The notes beneath the pieces are model-generated. The model saw nothing but the letters and a program-made list of their open reading frames with translations, was not told the origin of the DNA and ran no database searches. This document shows positions 2,223 to 54,781 of a stretch of DNA of 64,000 nucleotides, one piece after another. How positions within the stretch are numbered: the stretch's first letter is position 1; every line of letters starts with the position of its first letter. A program made the position numbers and the translations under genes. This stretch comes from Escherichia phage vB_EcoM-RPN242, in sequence record OL656110.1, one strand, 5' to 3'.

Positions 2223-2630
2223 ATGAGCACCCTCAAGCCATACTGGAAGACCACAATTCCTCTCCTGCGGCATGGCGATGAAGGGAAGATTCCATACCTA
2301 TCAGCAAGTATTTATTACTCTCAGAACAACAGCATCATTATCACTTTTAATCCATCATTCCATGCCAAGCTGAAGCAACACATGGTTGGGCGACTGGATA
2401 CAACATCAGATATAATCGTGACGTTCAAGATCATGAATGACTCGGATAAACCAGTACGAATCGCAACTCAGGGTGTGTTCGTTAACAACGACGCGGTTGG
2501 AAATGGGATGAGTATCTTTGAAGTTAACCCAGGGGGAACGATCTTGATCAGACTGAGTAATGTGGGTGTGAACTCCCTGCTGTTGGATGGCATCGAACCA
2601 GTGGGAGTTCTTCCGGCGCGGGAGCACTGA
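2223..2630 (+). CDS. hypothetical protein, about 135 aa, on the opposite strand
   Basis: C-terminal two-thirds of plus ORF 1815..2630 looks protein-like (IIITFNPSF..., IVTFKIMNDSDKPVRIATQG...) while the overlapping minus frames are W/H-rich; start uncertain (2151 or 2223). Confidence 0.3.
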   Translation: MSTLKPYWKTTIPLLRHGDEGKIPYLSASIYYSQNNSIIITFNPSFHAKLKQHMVGRLDTTSDIIVTFKIMNDSDKPVRIATQGVFVNNDAVGNGMSIFEVNPGGTILIRLSNVGVNSLLLDGIEPVGVLPAREH

Positions 2631-3359
2631 TTACTTCAGCGCGTTCTTCAGATTATCGGAACCAATGCTGTTGATGACACCTCCGGCGCAGATATCTTTC
2701 GCCCACTCTGAGATCACGTTGGCAAAAGAGAAGTTAAGACACTTACCAACCATGTCTTGGATATGGGCTAACTCTGCTGCAATACCGTTCGTGATGTCCT
2801 GAGCAATAGAGGCTACTGATGCGACAGCAGTGTCGATGGCCTGAGTAACTTCAGCAGCCAGTGCCTGAATAGCATCAAGACCAGCACCGACGCCCTGAGC
2901 TACCAACTCAGCCAGCTCATTCATCTTGTTTGTGATAGTTGTGAGAACACTTTGCATGGTGTTGATCCACTGTTTGCCGAGGTTCTGAATAACCCCAAAT
3001 GCATTATTGATCAGATCACAGTTGTTCGGTTCTCGACCTATAGACTTCAGGGCGGACTTATACGACACAGATGTACCGATGCGGGAATATGCCTCGTTCA
3101 CTGACTGGTCGCCATAGTTGTTCAAAGTAGTGATGCTGTTGTTGGCTGAGTTGAACATTGCTGTAGATTCGTTGAGTTTGGCTGTAGTCAACCCACCTGC
3201 CGTCAGCGCTTCCTGAATCTGCGCATTTCCGGTGTTAGCCAGTGACGCTGTAGTCGCCTTACCACTGGTGATTAACCCCTGTGAGGCGCTGCTGAGGGAC
3301 GGGAGAGGATTGGTAAAGGCGTTGCCCTGTGATAGGGCGTCATAGATCTGTGCGTTCAT
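2631..3359 (-). CDS. late protein, Ala/Ser/Thr-rich, likely virion-associated, 242 aa
   Basis: Track start 3401 lies upstream of the late promoter; re-called to ATG at 3359 which follows GGGGGTATTTTCTT. Confidence 0.6.
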   Translation of the reverse strand: MNAQIYDALSQGNAFTNPLPSLSSASQGLITSGKATTASLANTGNAQIQEALTAGGLTTAKLNESTAMFNSANNSITTLNNYGDQSVNEAYSRIGTSVSYKSALKSIGREPNNCDLINNAFGVIQNLGKQWINTMQSVLTTITNKMNELAELVAQGVGAGLDAIQALAAEVTQAIDTAVASVASIAQDITNGIAAELAHIQDMVGKCLNFSFANVISEWAKDICAGGVINSIGSDNLKNALK

Positions 3360-5813: not shown

Positions 5814-7286
5814 TTAGTTCAAGACATATTTGATCAGTCCACAATTCCAAATCCTGACCAACCCGGCTTCGGTTGCTAACTGGCTTTCTGTTTTGCCTTC
5901 TACGTCATACCCCATGCGAGCAAATGAACCTTTTCTGAAACCGAATTTGTGCTCACGCATAAATGTGCCAGGCTTGTGATATTTGTAGTCTGGCTTCTGT
6001 ACTTCCTCTTCTATGAATCCGTGGGATAGGTAAATGTTGGACAACCTGCTTACAACACACCTATCCCCAAAGGAATAGATTTTGGTGTCGGCAAATTTTC
6101 TTCTGAAGTGTGAAAGAAGTTTACTGAATGCCCCGTGGCAATCATTAGAGGCAAATCTGACTAATTCCAGGCCATCTTTCCTTTTAGTGAATAGCATCAC
6201 GGCTTGTATGACCCCACTCTTGTCAATTAACGATAAATGGTGGGTGGAAGAAACGGAACCTTGTATGTGGTGGTTGTCTAAAAACTCCCTCAAGCCGCTT
6301 ATATTTCCCCAAACGACTTTGTGTTGGCGAGCATATGACGCAGGCGTTTTAATGCCAAGTTTAGCTTTCAGAAGAGATTTGACCACTTCCTGTTTCTCAA
6401 CCCATTCATCTTCCCAGATGTGGATCAACTGGATACCCTGAGATTCACATATTTCAGTCTTTTCCAGGTGATAATATTTCTCTTTAAAAACTTCTGAATG
6501 CCAGTACAGGCCATTAAATTCAATCGCCAATTTGTGTTCAGGGCAATAGATATCCAGTTGTTTACCGGATAATATACTGTAATCAGAAACAGTGTTTACA
6601 ACTCCCATTGAGGTGAGAAACTCGGATATTTCCTTTTCATAAGAAGATTTCTTGTTCCTGATAGAACCATTGCTGAACAACGCACGTTTTAGTATGTTCG
6701 AGTTTTTCATAGGGTTGTCAACACCATAACGTTCTTGTAACGTTGCCAACGCCTTCTCCCTCACACCAGGTAATTGTAGTGTGGAGCAGCTTCCGTATTT
6801 GGATATATTCGAAGTCTCTATGGCTTTCCGACCAATCCCACCTTTACACATAGAAACCTGATAACATTCTTCAGAACAATATGTTCTGTAATCTTTATTA
6901 TTGATATAAAAGTTGGTTTCCTTGGAACACACCGGGCATATTTTCACGGTTCTATTGTACAGCCAAGCTGTGACTTTACAAGCCAAATCTTGTAGGGTGT
7001 TGTGGGTATTGGCGAACGCTAAAAGGTCTACATTGATGTGCTTCATAAGCAGTTCAGATTTGCATTTTTGGATATCCAATTTGTTGTTCTTGGTAAACAT
7101 ATATTTGTAGAAAAATTGGCGATATGATTCCTCGTCAGACAATTCATTCACTGCTTCAAGGAAACCTTCCGGGAGGTTCTTTAGGGTGTTCGATGCGAAG
7201 GTCTTGCAAGCATCTGAACAAAATTTCTTATCTTTCCTGGATGCTTTGAACTGTTCATGGCAGACACTACAGATTACCTGATACAT
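5814..7286 (-). CDS. putative free-standing homing-endonuclease-like protein with Vsr/DUF559-type nuclease motif and two Cys-pair zinc-finger-like elements
   Basis: LAIEFNGLYWHSE matches the Vsr-family (F/I)xDGxxWH signature; CSVCHEQF...CSDAC and CPVCSKE...CSEEC pairs; sits next to the capsid gene as segD does in T4. Track start 7382 runs through the terminator hairpin; re-called to ATG at 7286 (GGAGGAG upstream). Confidence 0.55.
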   Translation of the reverse strand: MYQVICSVCHEQFKASRKDKKFCSDACKTFASNTLKNLPEGFLEAVNELSDEESYRQFFYKYMFTKNNKLDIQKCKSELLMKHINVDLLAFANTHNTLQDLACKVTAWLYNRTVKICPVCSKETNFYINNKDYRTYCSEECYQVSMCKGGIGRKAIETSNISKYGSCSTLQLPGVREKALATLQERYGVDNPMKNSNILKRALFSNGSIRNKKSSYEKEISEFLTSMGVVNTVSDYSILSGKQLDIYCPEHKLAIEFNGLYWHSEVFKEKYYHLEKTEICESQGIQLIHIWEDEWVEKQEVVKSLLKAKLGIKTPASYARQHKVVWGNISGLREFLDNHHIQGSVSSTHHLSLIDKSGVIQAVMLFTKRKDGLELVRFASNDCHGAFSKLLSHFRRKFADTKIYSFGDRCVVSRLSNIYLSHGFIEEEVQKPDYKYHKPGTFMREHKFGFRKGSFARMGYDVEGKTESQLATEAGLVRIWNCGLIKYVLN

Positions 7287-7335
7287 AATTATTCTCCTCC
7301 ATATGGTATCTAGTATAACCTGTTCGATAATATGA

Positions 7336-7363
7336 ACAAATAAAAACCCCGCCGAAGCGGGGT
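7336..7363 (-). terminator. rho-independent terminator after the capsid gene
   Basis: Minus strand: hairpin CCCCGCTTCGGCGGGG followed by TTTTTATTTGTT. Confidence 0.7.
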
Positions 7364-7390
7364 TTGTCAGGGTTAAGGACAACTATTCGA

Positions 7391-8713
7391 TTAGAAAAGT
7401 CCCTTAATTAACCCTTTGCGGAAATACACGTTGCTGTCCTTGGCGATACCATCCGCAGTCACATAGACCTGTGGATCCTGGTTCGCTGGGATCTGAACGA
7501 ATGGGTTAGCACAAATCCCGTAGCGGGTCTTGAATGCCATACGTGGTGCGAAGGTGGTTTCACCCTGGGTGCGGTACATTTCCAGCGGTACATACGGTGC
7601 GAAGAAGATACCAGCGTCCAGCGCGGTTGCGCCTTTGTATGCCAGGGTGATGTATTCTGCTACTGCATACGGGTCGATGTAGACACGCATACCGTTAGAC
7701 AGCACACCAGCGAAGGTCTGGCCAGTCGGATCAATCGCCAGCTTGGTGTTTTCCTGCAGCGCCGGAGCATAATCCAGCATGCCGGACATCGCCAGAGCGG
7801 ATGCTACGTTCGGAGAACACAGAACACGGTTGCCTTTACCACGACGGGTATCAACACCGATGCCGTTCGCTTCAACTTCCAGCATGAAAGTCATGTACTT
7901 CCATTTTTCCAGCGCCCAACGACCGGAGATGTCAGTGGAGATATCTACGATACCATTGGTGCCGAATTTTTTGAAGCGTACTGCGCTGAAGTTCATGGTG
8001 CGGATAAACTCACGGTTCATCTCTGCCTGAATTTCAGTTACCATCACGTCGGACAGGATGCTGTCAACGTCTTCGCCGTGGATCGCCATCATGTCCTGGC
8101 GCAGTTCGTGGCTGTAGTCAGCGTACAGGCCACGAGACTTCGCAGTCACGGTTGCTTTCTGAACGGTGATACCAACACGTGCCCATGGGTTGGTGGTGGT
8201 GCCCAGCAGTTCGGCGTCGGTAGTTGACATACCTTTACCGATGGTGGTAGCAGCGCCGGAACCTTCGATCTCAGTCTGGGAGAAGCCAGATGGGTCGCCA
8301 GCCTGTGCAGTGTCGTCACCAGAGTAGCCAGAATCAGCTTCCTGCATGAACAGTTCTTTACGGGAATGTTGGGTGTTGGAGCCGCCGTCTGAAATGCCCT
8401 GGCGAGCACGCAGTGCGAAGATCTGACCGTCAGGACCAGACAACGGCTGAACGCCGAAGAAGTCCATCGCGATGTTGACCGGAGCCAGACGTTTGGCCAT
8501 GTCGATCAGGACTGGCTGCCATTTGCCCACAGAGGCGTTCACGGAGCCAGGAGCGTCAGATTCGCCCAGGTTTTTGGCGTTCCACTCAGCCTGGTTTTGC
8601 AGCAGACGGACGGCAACGTTTTCGGCAGAAAGCGGCTGGATGCTTTCAGATTCTTTCTGAAGAACTGGCAGCCACTGCTCGCGCATTTGTTCGGTAACAA
8701 GTTTCTTAGCCAT
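7391..8713 (-). CDS. major capsid protein (T4 gp23-like)
   Basis: 440 aa; follows scaffold, protease and portal in T4 order; ATG at 8713 has TAAGGAA upstream. Confidence 0.75.
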   Translation of the reverse strand: MAKKLVTEQMREQWLPVLQKESESIQPLSAENVAVRLLQNQAEWNAKNLGESDAPGSVNASVGKWQPVLIDMAKRLAPVNIAMDFFGVQPLSGPDGQIFALRARQGISDGGSNTQHSRKELFMQEADSGYSGDDTAQAGDPSGFSQTEIEGSGAATTIGKGMSTTDAELLGTTTNPWARVGITVQKATVTAKSRGLYADYSHELRQDMMAIHGEDVDSILSDVMVTEIQAEMNREFIRTMNFSAVRFKKFGTNGIVDISTDISGRWALEKWKYMTFMLEVEANGIGVDTRRGKGNRVLCSPNVASALAMSGMLDYAPALQENTKLAIDPTGQTFAGVLSNGMRVYIDPYAVAEYITLAYKGATALDAGIFFAPYVPLEMYRTQGETTFAPRMAFKTRYGICANPFVQIPANQDPQVYVTADGIAKDSNVYFRKGLIKGLF

Positions 8714-46389: not shown

Positions 46390-47664
46390 ATGAACAAATT
46401 CGCTGCACAACCCCTCGCTCCATATATCCCGTTCCGCACGTATATCCCGTTCCACACGTTAGGGAAAGGTCCATATAAAACGATTTTTGATGTCCTCTCT
46501 CTTCATCGTGAACATATTCACTGGGAAGACTACCTCTACAAACACACTCCGTGTGAACTCGTCGCCAACCCCGAAACTAACCAGCAGGTCTGGTTCAAGC
46601 GTGAAGATTACTTCGCGCCGCTATCTTGTTATATGAATGGCAAGCAGGGCATCAATGGCAGTAAGTTGCGCCAGGCCATCTGGTTGATGGTTGAGCACCT
46701 GAAGACCGGAGGCTCCCCTGACATCATCCATGGTACTGTCGTTGGTAGTCCGCAGTCCCCTATGGCGACGGCAGTCTCTCGGCACTTCGGCGGCAAGACA
46801 ACCACTGTACTCGGAGCGACCAAACCCACCACCTGTATGAACCACGACATGGTGGCAATGTCAGCCTGGTTTGGTAGTGAGTTCAACTTCGTCGGCTCGG
46901 GTTACAACAGCACGATCCAGCCGCGCTGTAAGAAGTTGATCGAACAACAGAATCCAAAGGCGTATTATCTGGAATATGGTATCACCCTCGACCACACAGC
47001 GCATTCTCCTGAGCGCATCGCTGGCTTCCATATGCTGGGTGGCGAGCAGGTTGCCAACATCCCTGACCATATTACCGATCTGATTATCCCAGCCGGATCC
47101 TGCAACTCTTGCACAAGCATCCTGACCGGGCTGGCAATGCATCCGAAGCCTAATCTGAAGCGTGTGTATCTGATTGGCATCGGTCCTAACCGCCTTGACT
47201 TTATCGAGAGCCGTCTGCGCATCATCGGCAAACATGCCAATCTGCCGCACATTGTCGACTTCACCCGTCGCTATCACGACAACCCAGACTATGTACACGG
47301 CAAGAAGGAGCTTCAGCATGCCTCTAAGAGCGTTTCGCTGGCTGGCCTCCTAAGTGGTATCAGGCAGAAGGAAGAGCCAGAGGTCGTGCTTCCTCGCTTT
47401 GAGGTACACCATTGGGATCTTCATACCACTAATTGGGTTCGTTACAATGATCTGATGGAATATCAGTGGGGTGATATTGAGTTGCATCCTCGCTATGAAG
47501 GCAAGGTCATGACCTGGGTTCAACAACACAAGCCCGAGTTGCTCAACGAGAACACCCTGTTCTGGATTGTGGGTAGCAAGCCATACATCGAGCCGATGAA
47601 GGCAGCATGCCCTGAGCTGGCTATCCCTGAAACAGTTCCTGTAAACGACTTCACCCCTTCCTGA
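46390..47664 (+). CDS. putative PLP-dependent enzyme (fold-type II, ACC-deaminase/D-cysteine-desulfhydrase-like)
   Basis: 424 aa; GINGSKLRQ resembles the GGNKxRK PLP-lysine loop and GSPQSP the Gly-rich phosphate loop; AGGAG upstream. Confidence 0.45.
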   Translation: MNKFAAQPLAPYIPFRTYIPFHTLGKGPYKTIFDVLSLHREHIHWEDYLYKHTPCELVANPETNQQVWFKREDYFAPLSCYMNGKQGINGSKLRQAIWLMVEHLKTGGSPDIIHGTVVGSPQSPMATAVSRHFGGKTTTVLGATKPTTCMNHDMVAMSAWFGSEFNFVGSGYNSTIQPRCKKLIEQQNPKAYYLEYGITLDHTAHSPERIAGFHMLGGEQVANIPDHITDLIIPAGSCNSCTSILTGLAMHPKPNLKRVYLIGIGPNRLDFIESRLRIIGKHANLPHIVDFTRRYHDNPDYVHGKKELQHASKSVSLAGLLSGIRQKEEPEVVLPRFEVHHWDLHTTNWVRYNDLMEYQWGDIELHPRYEGKVMTWVQQHKPELLNENTLFWIVGSKPYIEPMKAACPELAIPETVPVNDFTPS

Positions 47665-47704: not shown

Positions 47705-48169
47705 ATGAAAACCTTTCTTGAATATCTTAAAGAGGCGTCTGAGGCTGAACCCAAGTTCGATAACATGCGCCTCTTTCACGGCTCCAACGTAGGATTCGAT
47801 GTCTTCGACTTTGAGCGCTTCGGTCAGACTGACTGTGGTACGATGGGACCTGGGTTCTATCTGACAGGCAACGAAGAAGAGGCACAGCGCTATGCAGAGA
47901 ACGCCGTCCGCTACCGCCAGAGTGGTGAACCCCATGTTCTGGTGTTTAACGTCAGTGTTAAGAAGCCCCTCGAACTCGACTCTAACAATGTCTCGGCCTG
48001 GGAAGACGCTATGCGTGAACTTGGTATCGAACCGGGTAAGATCCATGAGAACGCCGCCGAGCTAATTGCTCAGGGCTATGACTCCACCATCGTGCTGGAC
48101 CGCTTTGGGTTGCCTATGGTGCGTGAGATCGTCCTGTACAAACCAGGCCTGGCAGTGCGGGAAGCCTAA
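47705..48169 (+). CDS. late-expressed hypothetical protein, 154 aa, with an HGS motif
   Basis: RLFHGSN...GFYLTGN suggests a nucleotide-modifying fold but is unverified; driven by a late promoter. Confidence 0.55.
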   Translation: MKTFLEYLKEASEAEPKFDNMRLFHGSNVGFDVFDFERFGQTDCGTMGPGFYLTGNEEEAQRYAENAVRYRQSGEPHVLVFNVSVKKPLELDSNNVSAWEDAMRELGIEPGKIHENAAELIAQGYDSTIVLDRFGLPMVREIVLYKPGLAVREA

Positions 48170-48177
48170 ATACCCCC
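48166..48177 (+). promoter_or_regulatory. late promoter CTAAATACCCCC
   Basis: The TAA stop of the upstream gene is embedded in the motif; GAGGAA then ATG at 48206. Confidence 0.55.
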
Positions 48178-48205
48178 ATATGGCTAACCCACTGAGGAAC
48201 CTAAC

Positions 48206-48664
48206 ATGCCAACCTCCAAATTGTTTGAATCAGAATACACCAATGACATCCCTGTATGGACTGGTGTTCAAGACGGTATCACGATTGAGCTGTTTGATCG
48301 TGAAGAGACAGGCGCGGAAGAGATCTATGCAGGCGTTGAAGGCACTGATGTTGTCCGCGCCGCCGTAGCACTTGCCACCTTCCTGGAAGATGCACCGATT
48401 GATGGTGTGCCGTTCGAGGCGCACGTAGATCCTCAGGATCCGACCTCTATCATCATTACAGTGAATGGGGTGCCATACACTTCATACAGCATCGAGACGG
48501 ACGAAGAAGGCAGTGGAGCGCTGTATATTGCCACCGACCTGCAGCTGGAAGACGATGAGATGGATTATCTGATTCAGAACGGGGTGCTGCCACCGTTTAC
48601 CGATGAAGAACTGGACACGGAACTGGCCGCCGTCGGGGACGACGAAGACTTCTGGGAAGAATAA
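48206..48664 (+). CDS. highly acidic late protein, 152 aa
   Basis: Asp/Glu-rich throughout (EEGSGALYIATDLQLEDDEMDYL...DEELDTELAAVGDDEDFWEE). Confidence 0.55.
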   Translation: MPTSKLFESEYTNDIPVWTGVQDGITIELFDREETGAEEIYAGVEGTDVVRAAVALATFLEDAPIDGVPFEAHVDPQDPTSIIITVNGVPYTSYSIETDEEGSGALYIATDLQLEDDEMDYLIQNGVLPPFTDEELDTELAAVGDDEDFWEE

Positions 48665-48666
48665 GA

Positions 48667-48695
48667 AAAGGGGCTTAACGCCCCTTTCTTTATTT
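48667..48695. terminator. bidirectional terminator GGGGCTTAACGCCCC
   Basis: Between convergent gene ends 48664 (plus) and 48690 (minus); T-run on plus, A-run upstream. Confidence 0.65.
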
Positions 48696-49241
48696 CACCT
48701 TGCGAGTTGGATATTGGTTAAAGAGTTTGCCTAGCTTAGACACGTTGATGATCGTTTGGGTCTTCCAGCGCTGGATCCCTTCCGGGGTAGTCACGGTCAG
48801 GATTGAATGCCCCCAAATGTGGGAACCGTCCAGCACAGCCGCGCTGTGGCTACCAATCTTATCTTCCAGTTTGCAAATGAAAGATTCATACTGATGGGCA
48901 GCGTTGCAACGGGCTTCCTTGATGAACAGACGCTGGCGCTCTGGATCGGCCTTGACGATGTTCGGTGCACCCACTTGATAAGAACGGTTTGGCGGGTTAT
49001 TGTCGGTAGTCAGGCTCATATACAAAGACTGCTTTGCCTTCATGCGATGGTAATCGTGGTGACCCATTCTGATGCCAACAGTTGATGGCCAAGGAGCGCA
49101 CTTCTGAAGATCCCAGCCGTTGGTGGCTAGATCGTCCATCACGTTCTTGATGATTTTGTTCGCGTACTGCTCGGCAGCTTCTTCGGCTTGCGACAACAGA
49201 GGCTCAACAGCGATACGGACAGCAGTTTTTGGTATTGTCAT
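48690..49241 (-). CDS. hypothetical protein, about 183 aa
   Basis: ATG at 49241 with GAAGGG upstream; track start 49295 over-extended. Confidence 0.5.
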   Translation of the reverse strand: MTIPKTAVRIAVEPLLSQAEEAAEQYANKIIKNVMDDLATNGWDLQKCAPWPSTVGIRMGHHDYHRMKAKQSLYMSLTTDNNPPNRSYQVGAPNIVKADPERQRLFIKEARCNAAHQYESFICKLEDKIGSHSAAVLDGSHIWGHSILTVTTPEGIQRWKTQTIINVSKLGKLFNQYPTRKVK

Positions 49242-49287
49242 GATATAGCCCTTCAGTTCAAAGTAAGCCCCCGGAGGGGCTTTGTAA

Positions 49288-49596
49288 TTAGACAAAGATG
49301 AATTTAGAATCTTTGAATGTCAAGCGGGAGCAAACTTCTTCAACCGCGTCAACCACCATAAAATCGTTGAATGCTTTGTGTAGGGCTTTCAGGAAGGAAG
49401 CCGGAACCAGCCCACACGCTGGGTTGTCAAACAAAGCCGAAGAGACGACAGAGTTGAAAGTTGAGTCTGGAGTACAAGACTGGGCAATCATAAGCGCTTC
49501 TGCGTTTCTCACTGCGTGGAACTTAAAGGTAGCAACAACGGTTTCTTTGTTAGATTTAGCCAGTTGTGCTTCAAATTGTTCTTTTGTGATTGCCAT
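49288..49596 (-). CDS. hypothetical protein, about 102 aa
   Basis: ATG at 49596 with GAGAAGGAAA upstream. Confidence 0.45.
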   Translation of the reverse strand: MAITKEQFEAQLAKSNKETVVATFKFHAVRNAEALMIAQSCTPDSTFNSVVSSALFDNPACGLVPASFLKALHKAFNDFMVVDAVEEVCSRLTFKDSKFIFV

Positions 49597-49691
49597 GATG
49601 TATTTCCTTCTCTTCAGATTGTTGTTTGTTCGTACTACAATTAGAAGTATACGCCAGTTATTGAAGAAGTAAACTTTATTCAATAAATATT

Positions 49692-49904
49692 TTAATAAAT
49701 TTTGAACTCCGCTCCTTTATACACCGCCGACCCTCGTTCTATGAGACCGTCTGGGACAATCACCTTTGTCGGCCAACCACCATCGGGAGCCTTAACAGTC
49801 AGGCGCGTCTTATGATCGCCCAGCTGTGTTTGTTCATAGATCCTTCCGCGTACTATCGTCGCCCCGCCCTGGGTGACGAGCAATCTCTTGTTTACCACAT
49901 TCAT
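49692..49904 (-). CDS. hypothetical protein, 70 aa
   Basis: ATG start but weak ribosome-binding site. Confidence 0.35.
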   Translation of the reverse strand: MNVVNKRLLVTQGGATIVRGRIYEQTQLGDHKTRLTVKAPDGGWPTKVIVPDGLIERGSAVYKGAEFKIY

Positions 49905-49946
49905 TCCCTAAACACCAAAAGAAAGGGGAGTTTCCTCCCCTTGAAC

Positions 49947-50519
49947 TTATTTCTTCAGATCAGGCCACGCACCAGAGGTCGCAGTAGACCCAGCTGGGGG
50001 AGCAGACTCAAGATCGGGAGAACCCGACTGAGTAACAACAGTGGGATCTTTCTGTACGACCCGAACCCCAAATTGCTTGAGAGCATCCATAGCTTGGGCT
50101 TTTCGCCTGTTGCTTTTGTAGTGGTTGTAGCCTTTGATACCGAATGATGCACTAATTGCTGTCAATAACGAATAGGTATACCATTCAGGTGCGGTATCTA
50201 GTGCCTGAAGGCCACCGATTACTGCTTTGATGAAATCCCCTTTATGATACTCACCAGGGAACAGAATCAGTTCCACAACCGGAGCAGTCATGACGAGGAT
50301 GGCGGGTATGGCCAACACGATAGTCCAGAATTCGTCTTTCCAAGACCCGCCGACTTCGGTAATCTTAGACAGCTCCCAATCTGAGGAGGACTTGATGGCC
50401 TCCAGCTTGACGTCGTGTTTGGCCTGTACAACTTCCCGCTTATATTGGATCAAATCAGTCCCGAGGTTCCAGAGTTGCTTGAGCGCCCCTGGGATCATAC
50501 CAACGAGGGGGATTGCCAT
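49947..50519 (-). CDS. membrane protein, possibly holin-like
   Basis: About 190 aa from ATG 50519 (AAGGAG upstream); two to three hydrophobic segments and a charged C-terminus. Confidence 0.5.
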   Translation of the reverse strand: MAIPLVGMIPGALKQLWNLGTDLIQYKREVVQAKHDVKLEAIKSSSDWELSKITEVGGSWKDEFWTIVLAIPAILVMTAPVVELILFPGEYHKGDFIKAVIGGLQALDTAPEWYTYSLLTAISASFGIKGYNHYKSNRRKAQAMDALKQFGVRVVQKDPTVVTQSGSPDLESAPPAGSTATSGAWPDLKK

Positions 50520-50598
50520 AATAAACTCCTTGGTCAATGAATGGCTCTATGGTTAAATATGCCCACGTGCTAACGGCACGGATAACCTGGAGAATTAC

Positions 50599-52016
50599 AT
50601 GACCGTCTTCTATACGAACGTTGCCCGCCGGGGCAATGACCTGTTGATTCGAATCGCAGATGACATGGGTAATCGCCGTCTGTTGAAAAAGAAATTCGAA
50701 CCCACTCTCTATTTACCCACGGCTGATTATTCAAATGTTGAAAAGGTCGGCCTGCTCAACGAACCCCTGGTCTCCAAGAAGTTCCCTGACATGCGCACTG
50801 CTGACAACTACCTTGAAGAGTACAAGGAAGTCCAGGGTGCAGCCATTTACGGGCAGACCGATTATGCATACCAGTTCATCGCCCATAGCTTTCCTGGAAA
50901 GATTGAGCCGGATTACTCCAACATCCATATTGCTAACCTCGATATCGAAGTGTTCTCCGCCGGGTGGAAAGATGGAAAGATGACCAAAGGTCCATTCCCT
51001 CACCCAACCATTGAGCAGCAGACGTTCAAAGGGAATGAGGCGCGCATTCGCCGCTTCCATCAGCAGGTACTGGCCAACCATGACTTCATCCGTGAGCACT
51101 TTCCCAGTTCCTTTATCAGCAACAACGTCACTGATCAGTTCCCTATCATTGACAGCAACGGTAAGATCACCCAAGACATGAATGCGGCGTTCCCCATTAC
51201 CCTGATCCAGCTTCAGGACATGGCGACCAATAAGTTCATGGTGTGGGGTATGCCGTGCGCGAAGGATCGTGCGAAGTTCAGATACGATCCAGAAGACGCG
51301 GAGATCGGTGGACTTGAGGTGGAGTACAAGGAGTTTGTCACCGAGCAGGATCTGCTGCGATCTTTCCTTGACTTCTGGTCACAGCGTCAGTTCGACGGCT
51401 GGACAGGCTGGAACATTGAGACGTTTGATAGCCCTTATCTTGTTGAGCGCATGAATCAGGTTCTGGGTGAGGCTGAAACGTCGCGCCTCAGTCCTTGGGG
51501 TATCATTAAGAAGCGTATCATTCGCGATAAGAAGGGCGATATCACGACGTATCAGTTCGTGGGTTGCCCTATGCTCGATTATATGCAGATCTACAAGAAA
51601 CACACGTACACCACCCGTGAACGCTACTCTCTTGACTGGATTGCGTATTGTGAGCTGGGTGAGAAGAAGATGGACTACAGTGAGAGCAAGTCGCTCTTTG
51701 ATCTGTACTTCAACGACTACTGCAAACACACCCGATATGGTATCAAAGACGTTAAGCTGGTATGGCGACTTGAACAGAAGCTGCGCCTGCTCCAGCTGAT
51801 GTTCGTCCTGGCCTACCGCACCAAGTCCAACTATGAGGACGGCCTGGGTACTGTGGCTCCGTGGCTGGCCATGTGCTATTATCGCCTGTATGAGAAGGGG
51901 ATAGTGCCTAAGATCCAGCGTGTATACGATGGTCCGACCGACTTTGAGGGTGCATACGTCATGGATGTGACACCAGGAATCTACTTCTGGGTCTTCTCTG
52001 AGGACTTGAACTCCCT
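50599..52016 (+). CDS. DNA polymerase, family B, exon 1 (N-terminal and exonuclease region up to motif A)
   Basis: N-terminus MTVFYTNVARRGNDLLIRI... resembles T4 gp43; frame ends at ...SEDLNSL, the first half of motif A. Confidence 0.85.
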
Positions 52017-53199
52017 TAAGTTAGCAGCATAGGGGCTTTGGTTGGCGACAACCATCGAATAACTCTCTTAATTGCTGGGAAGTCTCTTTAGAGATAATCA
52101 GCAGCCAAGGTCGGCCACGAAGACCTAAATACTCTGTAACCACGGTGAAGGAGTAAGGTCATGAAGGAAATCAAGAGTCTGTTCTATCGAAATGATTTGG
52201 TAATTGAAGAATCTAAGATAGAAGAATATTTGAAGTTCTGTAAGGAACACAGTTATGATGGTGATGGATACAGTGAACGCCATCATATACTGCCTCAGGC
52301 GCATTATCCTGAGTTCTCTAAAGAAGAATGGAACATTGTAAACCTGTTATATAAAGATCATGTAGAGGCTCATCGCCTGTTGCATGAAGCATTACCAGAA
52401 GATAAATCAGCGTTCTTCGCCTACTTCATGATGAAATCCCATAACGGGGAACTAAGTGAGGAATTGAGAAGAAAGAATGTTGAAATGCTGACGGGAGAGG
52501 GAAATCCTTCGAAGAGGGAAGATGTCAGAAGAAAGATATCCAAATCTAAGAAGGGTGTTAGAAGAGCAGATATGAAGGGTAAGGCTTATTTCGGCGCTGA
52601 TAAAGAAACAGCTGAAAGAATTAAAGCCAATTCCAGTCTTGTTCACAAAGGCACTGTCCCCGTAAGACTCCTGGATGGTAGTGTTATCAAAGTTTCAACG
52701 CAAGACCCGAGATATTTGAGTGGTGAGTTGAAATGTATAATAGGTGCAAAGAAAGGTCAGGTGGGACCAAACACCGACCCAAAAGCGAAGAAGAAATTTA
52801 AAGATTCTTTAGAGAAAAGGAAGGAAATGTTTGCCAGAATGAGTGGGGAAGAAATAACCACTCATTGCTTGACACAACAGGATTTAGGTAAGAAGACTGT
52901 AGAGTGGGGCAAGTTGGCAAGAAACTTCAAACGACTCTTTGGTTACGCTGGGTTAAACCCAGATGATTTCCTTGAAGTAGTGGGTGACAAGGTTCAACGA
53001 CTATCGAAAGCAAGACCGACGACTAAGCGTCTGATCTGAAGCGAGTAGAGTAGGGGCAAGCGCCTCGAAATGGAGAGAATCTCTAGACAGTTCTGGAGAT
53101 TGTGATATAGTCTGGCCTGTATGGTGACATACAGCAGTGTTCGGTAAACTGAATGACGAACACGGGGGATGAAATAGCGAGCATCCCTGAACATAAGCG
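52017..53199 (+). mobile_element. group I intron carrying an HNH homing endonuclease gene
   Basis: R-like element GTTCAACGACTA at 52992-53003 and S-like GATATAGTC at 53104-53112; 5' exon ends in U, intron ends in G; splicing gives DLNSL|YPHIIQQYNLGPETI. Confidence 0.7.
52161..53039 (+). CDS. HNH homing endonuclease (intron-encoded)
   Basis: ERHHILPQ...NIVNLLYKDHVEAHRLLHE is an HNH motif; GGAG upstream; 3' end overlaps the intron core. Confidence 0.8.
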   Translation: MKEIKSLFYRNDLVIEESKIEEYLKFCKEHSYDGDGYSERHHILPQAHYPEFSKEEWNIVNLLYKDHVEAHRLLHEALPEDKSAFFAYFMMKSHNGELSEELRRKNVEMLTGEGNPSKREDVRRKISKSKKGVRRADMKGKAYFGADKETAERIKANSSLVHKGTVPVRLLDGSVIKVSTQDPRYLSGELKCIIGAKKGQVGPNTDPKAKKKFKDSLEKRKEMFARMSGEEITTHCLTQQDLGKKTVEWGKLARNFKRLFGYAGLNPDDFLEVVGDKVQRLSKARPTTKRLI

Positions 53200-54781
53200 A
53201 TATCCACACATCATTCAGCAATACAACCTCGGTCCAGAGACTATCGTTGGCGACAAACACCAGCGCCGCGAGATTATTGAGGCTATGTGTGAAGAGCTGG
53301 CTGCTCAGATGAATAACATGGCAACGCCGATGCACAAACGTCGGTTGATGAAAGCCCTTCACGACAAGCTGTTGCGTGCGGTTGACGAACGCCTGCAGGT
53401 TGTTGATGAGTTGGTTGCCCTGGGTGAGTTCCACTTTGAAACCCTGCGCCGCTACAACGTGTCGTTCACGCCGAACGTTCAATTCTTCAGCAACGAGAAG
53501 ATGTCGTTCCTGTCTGAAATCATGCGTGGTATCTACAGCGACCGTAAAGTAGAGAAGGCCAAGGGTCTGAAGTATGAGCAGTGGGCTGGCTGGTGTAAAG
53601 AGATGTCGAAGGGCGACTTCCATCTTGAGTCTGCCATGAAGTCTCGCTACTATGACCCAGAGTGGTATGAAGAGCACAAGAACATTGATCTTGATGCCCT
53701 GACCGAAGTGATGAAGAAGTGGGAAGACCTGGGCGTCGCTCAAGATACCCTACAGCAAGGTCTGAAGATCTTGATGAACGCAGGTTATGGCGCTATCTCA
53801 AACGTCTGGTTCAAAGAGTACTTCAACCTCAACATTGCCGAAGCCATCACCACATCCGGTCAGCTGATCAACAAGTGGAACAAGCGTTACACTGATGACT
53901 ATCTGAACAAGCTGTGTGGTACAACAGGCCAGGACTTCGTCATCGCAGGGGATACCGACTCCAACTACATCTGTATTGAGCGTCTTGTCAAGCAGTTGTG
54001 GCCTGATGTTACTGACCATCATGCTATGGTTGATAATATCGACCAATGGATCAAAGACAACTACCAGCCGAAGACCAATGAGTGGGCACAGCTTCTGTGT
54101 AACACCATGAACGGATTTGAACAGCGCATGGTGTGGGAGCGTGAGGTCATTGCGTCAGCCGCTGTCTGGCGAGCCAAGAAGATGTATGCCATGGCCGTGT
54201 ACGACAGTGAGGGTATCAAGTATGAGAAGCCGAAGATCAAGTTCAAAGGTCTGGAAGCCCGCAAGTCCACCACGCCGGAATGGTGTCGTGAGCGCCTTGT
54301 CAAGTGCTATGAGAAGATCCTACTCGGCACCGAAGAGGAAGTACAGACGCTCATCTCCCAGTACAAAGAGGAGTATATGAAACTCTCTGTAGACGATATC
54401 GCCAAGGCGTCAGGCGTGTCCGACATAGAGAAGTGTGTGGCTGCTGACGGATCGTTTATATCTGGTGCTCATTTTGCTGCCAAGGCGTGTGTGGGCTACA
54501 ACCGTCTGGTTGAGAAGAACGAAGATCTGGGTCTACCGATGATCGAGTCGGGTGATAAGGTACAGATGGTGTTGTTGAAGCCGGGCAACCCGTTTGGGCA
54601 GAACTACTTTGCATATCCTGAGTTCTTCCCAGAGGAGCTTGGTCTGGGCAAATGGGTGGATTATCAGGCGGCCTTTGAGAAGTCCTTCATTGATCCGATT
54701 CAGTCTATCCTCGACGTGGTCGGCTGGTCACACAAGCGCCGTGTGAACCTTCTTGCCATGATGCAAAAGAAGAAAGGTTGA
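53200..54781 (+). CDS. DNA polymerase, family B, exon 2 (motif A second half, motif C, thumb)
   Basis: Begins ...YPHIIQQYNLGPETI; contains VIAGDTDSNYI (motif C). The track's ATG at 53153 lies inside the intron. Confidence 0.85.

Follow-up and report, generated by a model that had tools for sequence, protein, structure and literature searches.

A membrane protein encoded beside polB as a candidate holin of Escherichia phage vB_EcoM-RPN242 and its Ackermannviridae relatives

The DNA considered here is a 64,000-nucleotide stretch of Escherichia phage vB_EcoM-RPN242 (sequence record OL656110.1), referred to below as the window, and the subject is a block of four minus-strand genes within it, named A to D from the side of the DNA polymerase gene polB. 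Gene A (49947-50519) encodes a predicted inner-membrane protein of 190 residues that is the candidate holin of the RPN242 phage. This identification, which we rate at somewhat better than an even chance, is based on the gene context of the wider A family, in which endolysin genes are found as neighbours and endolysin domains are found fused to the A domain. The linkage to endolysins is seen in that wider family and not in the window of the RPN242 phage. The products of B, C and D are soluble accessory proteins, not lysis enzymes.

A sequence search with A finds 142 relatives. Those outside the Ackermannviridae are proteins of 107-142 residues from marine and other metagenomes, and these marine and metagenomic relatives match A with an expectation value (E) of about 1e-17 and with 41-44% identity across the core. 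A profile search for the family, made in a space of 1.84 billion cluster representatives, returns 1276 of them at E<=1e-3. The family alignment has an invariant core, SWKDEFWT...IP, PEWY and SASFGIKG, to which the Ackermannviridae forms add an insertion, 9 residues long in A, in the loop that joins the transmembrane segments, as well as a tail of about 60 residues that ends in AWPDLxKK. In three of six metagenomic contexts, the A homologue (123-128 residues) abuts or overlaps a Peptidase_M15_3 gene, and in one more it lies one gene away. The homologue in Pseudomonas phage PP21 follows a Phage_lysozyme gene (E 1.8e-46), from which it is separated by one open reading frame (ORF) of 51 residues, while that of Roseobacter phage CRP-13 is located one gene before a Peptidase_M15_4 endolysin. 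Endolysin domains and the A domain are joined in two relatives: P0278 combines the A domain with Glyco_hydro_108 and PG_binding_3, and P0286 combines Peptidase_M15_3 with the A domain. The marine homologue P0065 matches 26 Pelagibacter phage records. In HTVC010P-type pelagiphages, the neighbour of Peptidase_M15_3 has been called a GTA_holin_3TM (PF11351) holin, acting together with Peptidase_M15_3 (10.1101/672428). The endolysin neighbours and the fusions support the holin-like reading of A that had been put forward in an earlier examination of this DNA from its sequence (the original prediction).

The holin label itself is not new. The A orthologue of Dickeya phage PP35 is a 'putative holin' in its record, and that of Serratia phage 3M carries the name 'Holin' in UniRef, but in the literature searched the label is neither argued nor tested. 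Two database records carry the label DUF3154 on members of the A family. Membership of A in PF11351 was tried with A, with 98 relatives and with three phage homologues, and gave marginal matches at best; a Vibrio phage homologue annotated as DUF3154 fails the current PF11351 model. A is best placed in an unnamed family, holin-like by context and situated at the fringe of PF11351. Within this family it is a new, longer member, although already tagged as a holin in a couple of records.

The protein has the traits of the holin class: it is small, contains one or more transmembrane segments and has a C terminus that is hydrophilic and charged. Its ATG start codon stands behind a GGAG Shine-Dalgarno sequence. 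Residues ~64-86 form a strongly hydrophobic segment, in which 19-residue Kyte-Doolittle windows exceed 1.2 at starts 61-74 and peak at 2.4. The segment at ~112-130, which ends in the invariant SASFGIKG, is conserved and weakly hydrophobic. Residues 1-24 are amphipathic, again with weak hydrophobicity. Of the three transmembrane segments expected of the PF11351 type, A would have one strong and two weak ones (1-24 and 112-130), and the multi-pass membrane protein of the original prediction is only partly shown. The charged C terminus that it described is evident in residues 131-157, straight after the second segment, which have a net charge of +6. From this basic stretch and the positive-inside rule, the C-terminal tail would be expected to lie in the cytoplasm. 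Beyond its basic part the tail is rich in Pro, Ser and Thr, and it ends in AWPDLKK. An in-frame TTG at 50537, six codons upstream of the ATG, would add MTKEFI to the protein, and the longer form is the one annotated in the relative Gloob. No obvious Shine-Dalgarno sequence precedes this TTG. The TTG/ATG pair resembles the dual-start motif of holin/antiholin genes.

Of 268 phage records matched by the region 48000-51000, the closest is Escherichia phage vB_EcoM-ZQ1 with 98% identity. The other matches are Salmonella, Klebsiella, Escherichia, Dickeya and Shigella phages, all of them Ackermannviridae, and by this similarity the window is that of a Vi1-like myovirus (Ackermannviridae; vB_EcoM-ZQ1 is in the Aglimvirinae). 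Gene A is present in 337 phage records and is 88-100% identical among enterobacterial Ackermannviridae; all relatives examined have it divergent from the adjacent gene of the family-B DNA polymerase. In the Aeromonas phage phiA8-29, a Tedavirus, an A homologue of 34% identity is the sole gene at that position on the polB side. Four relatives, CAU_YEP3, Gloob and LIMEstone1 among those named, have exactly the same 79 bp between A and polB, while the flanking coding DNA differs by 3-10%. An invariant region amid diverging coding DNA points to strong regulatory constraint, and the region should hold promoters for both genes. No sigma-70-like site upstream of A is recognised in these 79 bp, and the putative late -10 element that LIMEstone1 annotates there is assigned to polB alone.

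Vi1-like phages are broadly used in biocontrol and phage therapy against Salmonella, E. coli O157, Klebsiella and Dickeya. The CBA120 paper found no holin or lysis enzyme in CBA120, ViI and AG3, and described lysis-inhibition-like behaviour of CBA120 at high multiplicity of infection (PMC3184105). The Sa157lw paper of 2022 likewise found no holin gene (PMC9686305), and the lysis genes in a core-genome table of 2024 are RIIA, RIIB and an N-acetylmuramidase endolysin only (PMC10892097). Since a holin is absent from the published accounts of CBA120, ViI and Sa157lw and from the core table, A would fill a gap: it is a concrete holin candidate, conserved throughout the family, where papers from 2011 to 2022 call the holin unidentified. 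It also links the Ackermannviridae to a large and mostly unannotated holin-like family, many of whose 1276 cluster representatives are from marine phages.

The holin activity, the topology and the timing of A in the RPN242 phage are inferred, and the steps proposed here are derived from general holin behaviour. The protein would enter the inner membrane by way of the strong transmembrane segment (~64-86) and the conserved second segment (~112-130), with the basic C-terminal tail remaining in the cytoplasm. It would build up and then trigger, permeabilising or depolarising the membrane. A muralytic enzyme encoded elsewhere in the genome would then reach the cell wall, and spanins would complete lysis. 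The lysis genes of the Ackermannviridae are dispersed over the genome in a T4-like manner, and the block consists of an ancient, family-wide gene, A, beside a variable slot that gathers accessory genes such as B, C and D, rather than being one functional unit.

The features of the block and its boundaries are as follows.

49947-50519, minus strand: gene A, 190 residues, phrog_2524, predicted inner-membrane protein and probable holin
49692-49904, minus strand: gene B, 70 residues, phrog_4732, soluble and basic, predicted SH3/Tudor/KOW-like beta-barrel
49288-49596, minus strand: gene C, 102 residues, phrog_24635, soluble, a sporadic mobile accessory gene
48690-49241, minus strand: gene D, 183 residues, phrog_4687, soluble alpha+beta protein
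48666-48688, both strands: bidirectional intrinsic terminator between D (minus strand) and the plus-strand gene 48206-48664
49265-49282, minus strand: GC hairpin between C and D, 7-bp stem with a weak U-run, z -1.8, of uncertain role as a terminator
49646-49673, minus strand: in the AT-rich stretch before C, a weak match to a sigma-70-like promoter (TTTACT, 16-nt spacer, TATACT)
49923-49942, minus strand: terminator-like hairpin after A, an 8-bp GC-rich stem followed by UUUCUUUU
50520-50598, no strand assigned: divergent intergenic region between A and polB, 79 bp

The four ORFs of the original prediction are all present, and each has a strong PHROG profile match (E 4.6e-69 for A, 6e-41 for B, 7.5e-32 for C and 6e-100 for D), so that they are genuine genes and not chance ORFs. 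The match of A to phrog_2524 is full-length, residues 5-152 being aligned to positions 1-142 of the 142 in the profile. All four PHROG families are labelled as of unknown function, and scans of A to D against Pfam, NCBIfam and PADLOC gave no usable match, the only ones being sub-threshold, chance-level matches of D. The orientation of the block, opposite to that of its neighbours, was also correctly described, since the gene at 48206-48664 on one side and polB from 50599 on the other are both on the plus strand. The bidirectional terminator proposed as a boundary is found on both strands, with folding z-scores of -3.7 and -4.8, and 0 of 200 shuffles folds as well. The hairpins at 49923-49942 and 49265-49282 are features beyond the original prediction. 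LIMEstone1 annotates a factor-independent terminator at the site equivalent to the first, while the second is missing from the terminator scan of the window and is seen in the folding analysis. With hairpins between the genes, A to D are probably not one simple operon. The sigma-70-like match upstream of C agrees with the consensus at 9 of 12 positions and is a consensus match alone; such sites are not enriched in the region overall (6 found, 3.7 expected).

A different motif, CTAAATACCC (at most one mismatch), is enriched in the window, with 13 sites against 2.4 expected, a number that no shuffle reached.

CTAAATACCC sites: 188, 3385, 20226, 27782, 32142, 34804, 38072, 43664, 45342, 47671, 47697, 48166 and 52125

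The motif agrees with the -10 elements that the LIMEstone1 annotation assigns to putative late promoters, and it is located before the plus-strand genes 47705 and 48206; on the minus strand of the A-D block it does not occur. CTAAATACCC is a candidate for the late-promoter consensus of the Ackermannviridae, called unidentified in the CBA120 paper (PMC3184105). The T4 late promoter TATAAATA was tried as well and is not enriched in the window (2 sites, 1.2 expected). A literature search yielded nothing relevant on an Ackermannviridae transcriptome.

The other three genes of the block have distinct distributions. B, a soluble and basic protein, is found only in the Ackermannviridae, and it comes right after A in every enterobacterial member in which the two genes could be located. 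Comparison of its predicted fold gives matches to generic SH3, Tudor and KOW barrels only, from which no function can be read. Of the 71 records that match C, only 8 reach 80% identity or more; where names and genome sizes are listed, these are of the Ackermannviridae type in all 8, and Gloob has C at a different genomic position. Most of the other C matches listed are Escherichia siphophages of about 44 kb, Dhillonvirus included, with about 57% identity, and by this distribution C is a mobile accessory gene that Dhillonvirus siphophages carry as well. D has a family of 109 homologue clusters, prophage copies included, with an invariant C-terminal motif, W(K/R)TQxIxNxS..GxxFNQxPxR, and most Ackermannviridae have it, as do Pectobacterium and Agrobacterium phages and prophages. 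Its alignment-based AlphaFold AF2 model is confident (predicted local distance difference test score 91, predicted template modelling score 0.82), its N-terminal half being helical and its C-terminal half a beta-sheet, and a Foldseek comparison of this model with the PDB gives no match at E<=0.001. The original prediction had proposed a search for an endolysin fold in 48690-49241; no lysozyme, transglycosylase, amidase or peptidase domain or fold is present in D, and the confident model without a muralytic fold would rule it out as a peptidoglycan hydrolase. The domain matches of D to MCR_alpha (20 bits, cut-off 25) and to HTH_33 are sub-threshold, at chance level, and were rejected.

The content of the block ranges among relatives from A alone to A with five other genes (1-6 genes). 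Limestonevirus has B and D fused as a single chimeric ORF, from which residues 52-70 of B and 1-30 of D are missing. ORF176 of LIMEstone1 (2501-3061 of the stretch examined) has 186 residues, the first 51 of B followed by 31-183 of D, and by this alignment it is a B-D chimera generated by deletion.

This variability bears on a second explanation of the block, that B, C and D, alone or together with A, are an early-expressed island for host takeover, the other option in the original prediction, or for anti-defence or superinfection exclusion, at a hotspot of accessory genes. Such an island is possible, though we would not bet on it. The varying gene content and the horizontal exchange of C with unrelated siphophages are in its favour, and cellular proteins use folds like the Tudor/KOW-like one predicted for B to bind RNA polymerase or the ribosome. 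In a Serratia sp. prophage contig (1295-2939), a D homologue is on the same strand as, and directly downstream of, a CI-like repressor gene (HTH_3 and Peptidase_S24), opposite a Cro gene; exclusion genes of the rexAB type have this place in lambda. D homologues in other contexts stand among small phage genes, and such a placement is typical of accessory early genes or of genes expressed from a prophage. The D family is thereby one that is also seen in early or immunity regions of prophages. However, none of the genes A to D matches PADLOC or the known anti-defence models, and the island is compatible with the accessory-slot explanation of B, C and D rather than exclusive of it.

Several observations weigh against the identification of A as the holin. 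In the RPN242 phage the gene is not linked to an endolysin or a spanin and adjoins polB, in an early/middle gene neighbourhood. No CTAAATACCC-type motif precedes A on its own strand, despite the enrichment elsewhere in the window, and the protein has a single strongly hydrophobic segment. Two of the six metagenomic contexts show no endolysin. A reaches no model in Pfam, NCBIfam or PADLOC; against PF11351 in particular it gives no match even at E<=10 and stays below the gathering threshold. Only 7 of 98 relatives touch that model, weakly: 5 in a set of 36 at E<=1 (best 0.07) and 2 in a set of 62 at E<=0.01 (best 0.006). Comparison by hhalign of the A-family profiles A3 and A1 with TeaA, the holin of phage ICP1 (ORF137, NC_015157), gives probabilities of 0.3% and 0.2%, so that kinship with TeaA was rejected on both profile comparisons; TeaA itself has no hmmscan match to PF11351. 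Finally, relatives such as CAU_YEP3 encode a 54-residue protein with two hydrophobic stretches that is an alternative holin or pinholin candidate. This protein (phrog_34593) is encoded, beyond the window, three genes upstream of a phrog_600 gene resembling lysozymes and transglycosylases, and the two (within 6944-8413 of the CAU_YEP3 stretch examined) are a candidate for an alternative pair of holin or pinholin and secreted endolysin in the Ackermannviridae.

A may instead do something other than lysis in the inner membrane, whether in superinfection exclusion, as a membrane tether or regulator linked to replication, or in another early function, having diverged from holins or holin accessory proteins whose genes are near endolysins. 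The divergent pairing of A with polB is kept family-wide, phiA8-29 included, the intergenic region is invariant and no late-promoter-like motif precedes A. The gene is also at least 90% identical in most matching records, in comparison with 60-80% for D in most of its matches, and both the loop insertion and the tail of the Ackermannviridae forms are lacking in the endolysin-linked relatives of 120-130 residues. On the other side, the core motifs SWKDEFWT...IP, PEWY and SASFGIKG are intact in A, no other holin has been identified in the Ackermannviridae, and a T4-like scattering of lysis genes makes the unlinked position of A unremarkable. A non-lytic role is given roughly one chance in four, and the holin remains the preferred reading of A.

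If A is a holin, its Ackermannviridae-specific tail with the conserved AWPDL(K/S/N)KK end could be a regulatory handle for the lysis inhibition described for CBA120, with B as a cytoplasmic, RIII-like antiholin or timer partner. Lysis inhibition by the A tail and B would then have no kinship with the systems of T4 and ICP1. In phiA8-29 there is no B, and the A tail lacks the AWPDL ending. This pairing is regarded as improbable.

The lysis genes of the relatives are located elsewhere. In CAU_YEP3, a spanin pair and a lysozyme-like gene are 60-75 kb from A. The o-spanin matches the PHROG 'Rz-like spanin' family phrog_3843, the neighbouring gene annotated as i-spanin matches a PHROG of unknown function only, and the lysozyme-like protein (phrog_600) has an N terminus resembling a signal peptide. 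A local tblastn search found no homologue of these spanin and lysozyme-like genes within the 64-kb window. The family endolysin is placed between PhoH and primase in the core-genome table (PMC10892097). B and C have no hydrophobic window and no lipoprotein features or lipobox, and so are not spanins. The lysis cassette of the original prediction, in which A to D would supply the holin, the endolysin and spanins or accessory proteins, thus finds little to sustain it and is very unlikely: although the genes are on the same strand, tightly packed between a terminator and a divergent promoter region, and A is holin-like, the confident model of D has no muralytic fold, B and C have neither a transmembrane segment nor a lipobox, C is present in few relatives and is elsewhere in the Gloob genome, B and D are a chimera in Limestonevirus and A stands alone in phiA8-29, terminator-like hairpins separate the genes, and the spanin and lysozyme-like genes of CAU_YEP3 are at the distant loci just described. 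The lesson for annotation is that the genes beside A should not carry lysis labels.

The genes on both sides of the block have features of their own. In the window polB is split (span 50599-54781), with exons at 50599-52032 and 53153-54781. The insert carries an ORF for an HNH homing endonuclease (52161-53039, phrog_12434, E 1e-159) and, at 52874-53134, a sub-threshold match to the Group I intron model RF00028 (31.2 bits, gathering threshold 50, E 5.5e-5). The gene is also split in ZQ1 and LIMEstone1, and is uninterrupted (3000 nt) in CAU_YEP3 and Gloob. On the other side, the plus-strand gene 47705-48169 encodes an ART-PolyVal/DUF3990-like protein with a fold resembling that of ADP-ribosyltransferases (ART) (Pfam E 4.9e-10; PADLOC PDC-M13A E 1.2e-9). 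By position, this gene and 48206-48664 correspond to ORF173 and ORF174 ('confirmed structural protein') of LIMEstone1, which suggests that the 47705-48169 product is an ART-like protein packaged in the virion, comparable to T4 Alt. The product of 46390-47664, also on the plus strand, resembles enzymes dependent on pyridoxal phosphate (PLP) (Pfam PALP, E 3e-7, below threshold), and relatives annotate its counterpart as threonine ammonia-lyase or as a PLP enzyme. Vi1-like phages hypermodify thymidine, CAU_YEP3 annotates a thymine pyrophosphorylase elsewhere in its genome, and the 46390-47664 gene may belong to the thymidine hypermodification pathway.

Class I holins such as lambda S105 are small proteins with up to three hydrophobic segments and a basic cytoplasmic C-terminal tail. 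A is similar in its small size, in having up to three hydrophobic segments and a basic tail, and in the possible second start at the TTG six codons upstream; it differs in that it has no homology to S105, only one of its segments is strongly hydrophobic and its TTG has no obvious Shine-Dalgarno sequence. In T4, the lysis genes t, e, rz/rz1, rI and rIII are scattered around the genome, and the holin T crosses the membrane once and has a large domain in the periplasm. The Ackermannviridae are related to T4, and their spanin genes, lysozyme-like gene and candidate holin gene are likewise at separate loci. A, however, resembles T in neither sequence nor architecture, and no rI homologue was seen.

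TeaA of ICP1 is an experimentally supported holin of 182 residues that functions with the antiholin ArrA (Hays and Seed 2020, PMC7182436). Its authors placed it in DUF3154/PF11351 by remote homology, and ICP1 is a large lytic phage with lysis inhibition (PMC7182436). A is similar to TeaA in size (190 and 182 residues), and CBA120 also shows lysis-inhibition-like behaviour; the window has no ArrA-like multi-pass neighbour of A. A further likeness is to the holins of HTVC010P-type pelagiphages and other marine phages that the literature annotates as GTA_holin_3TM/DUF3154 (PF11351): A is directly homologous to marine phage proteins of about 123 residues (E ~1e-17). A is longer than these, with its loop insertion and its tail of about 60 residues, and lacks their endolysin neighbour. 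The marine relatives of A adjoin Peptidase_M15_3 as in the HTVC010P-type pelagiphages (10.1101/672428), a likeness by gene order. A and the marine proteins share the same order of elements: an N-terminal amphipathic segment, then SWKDEFW with the first transmembrane segment, and then PEWY with the second, which ends in SASFGIKG.

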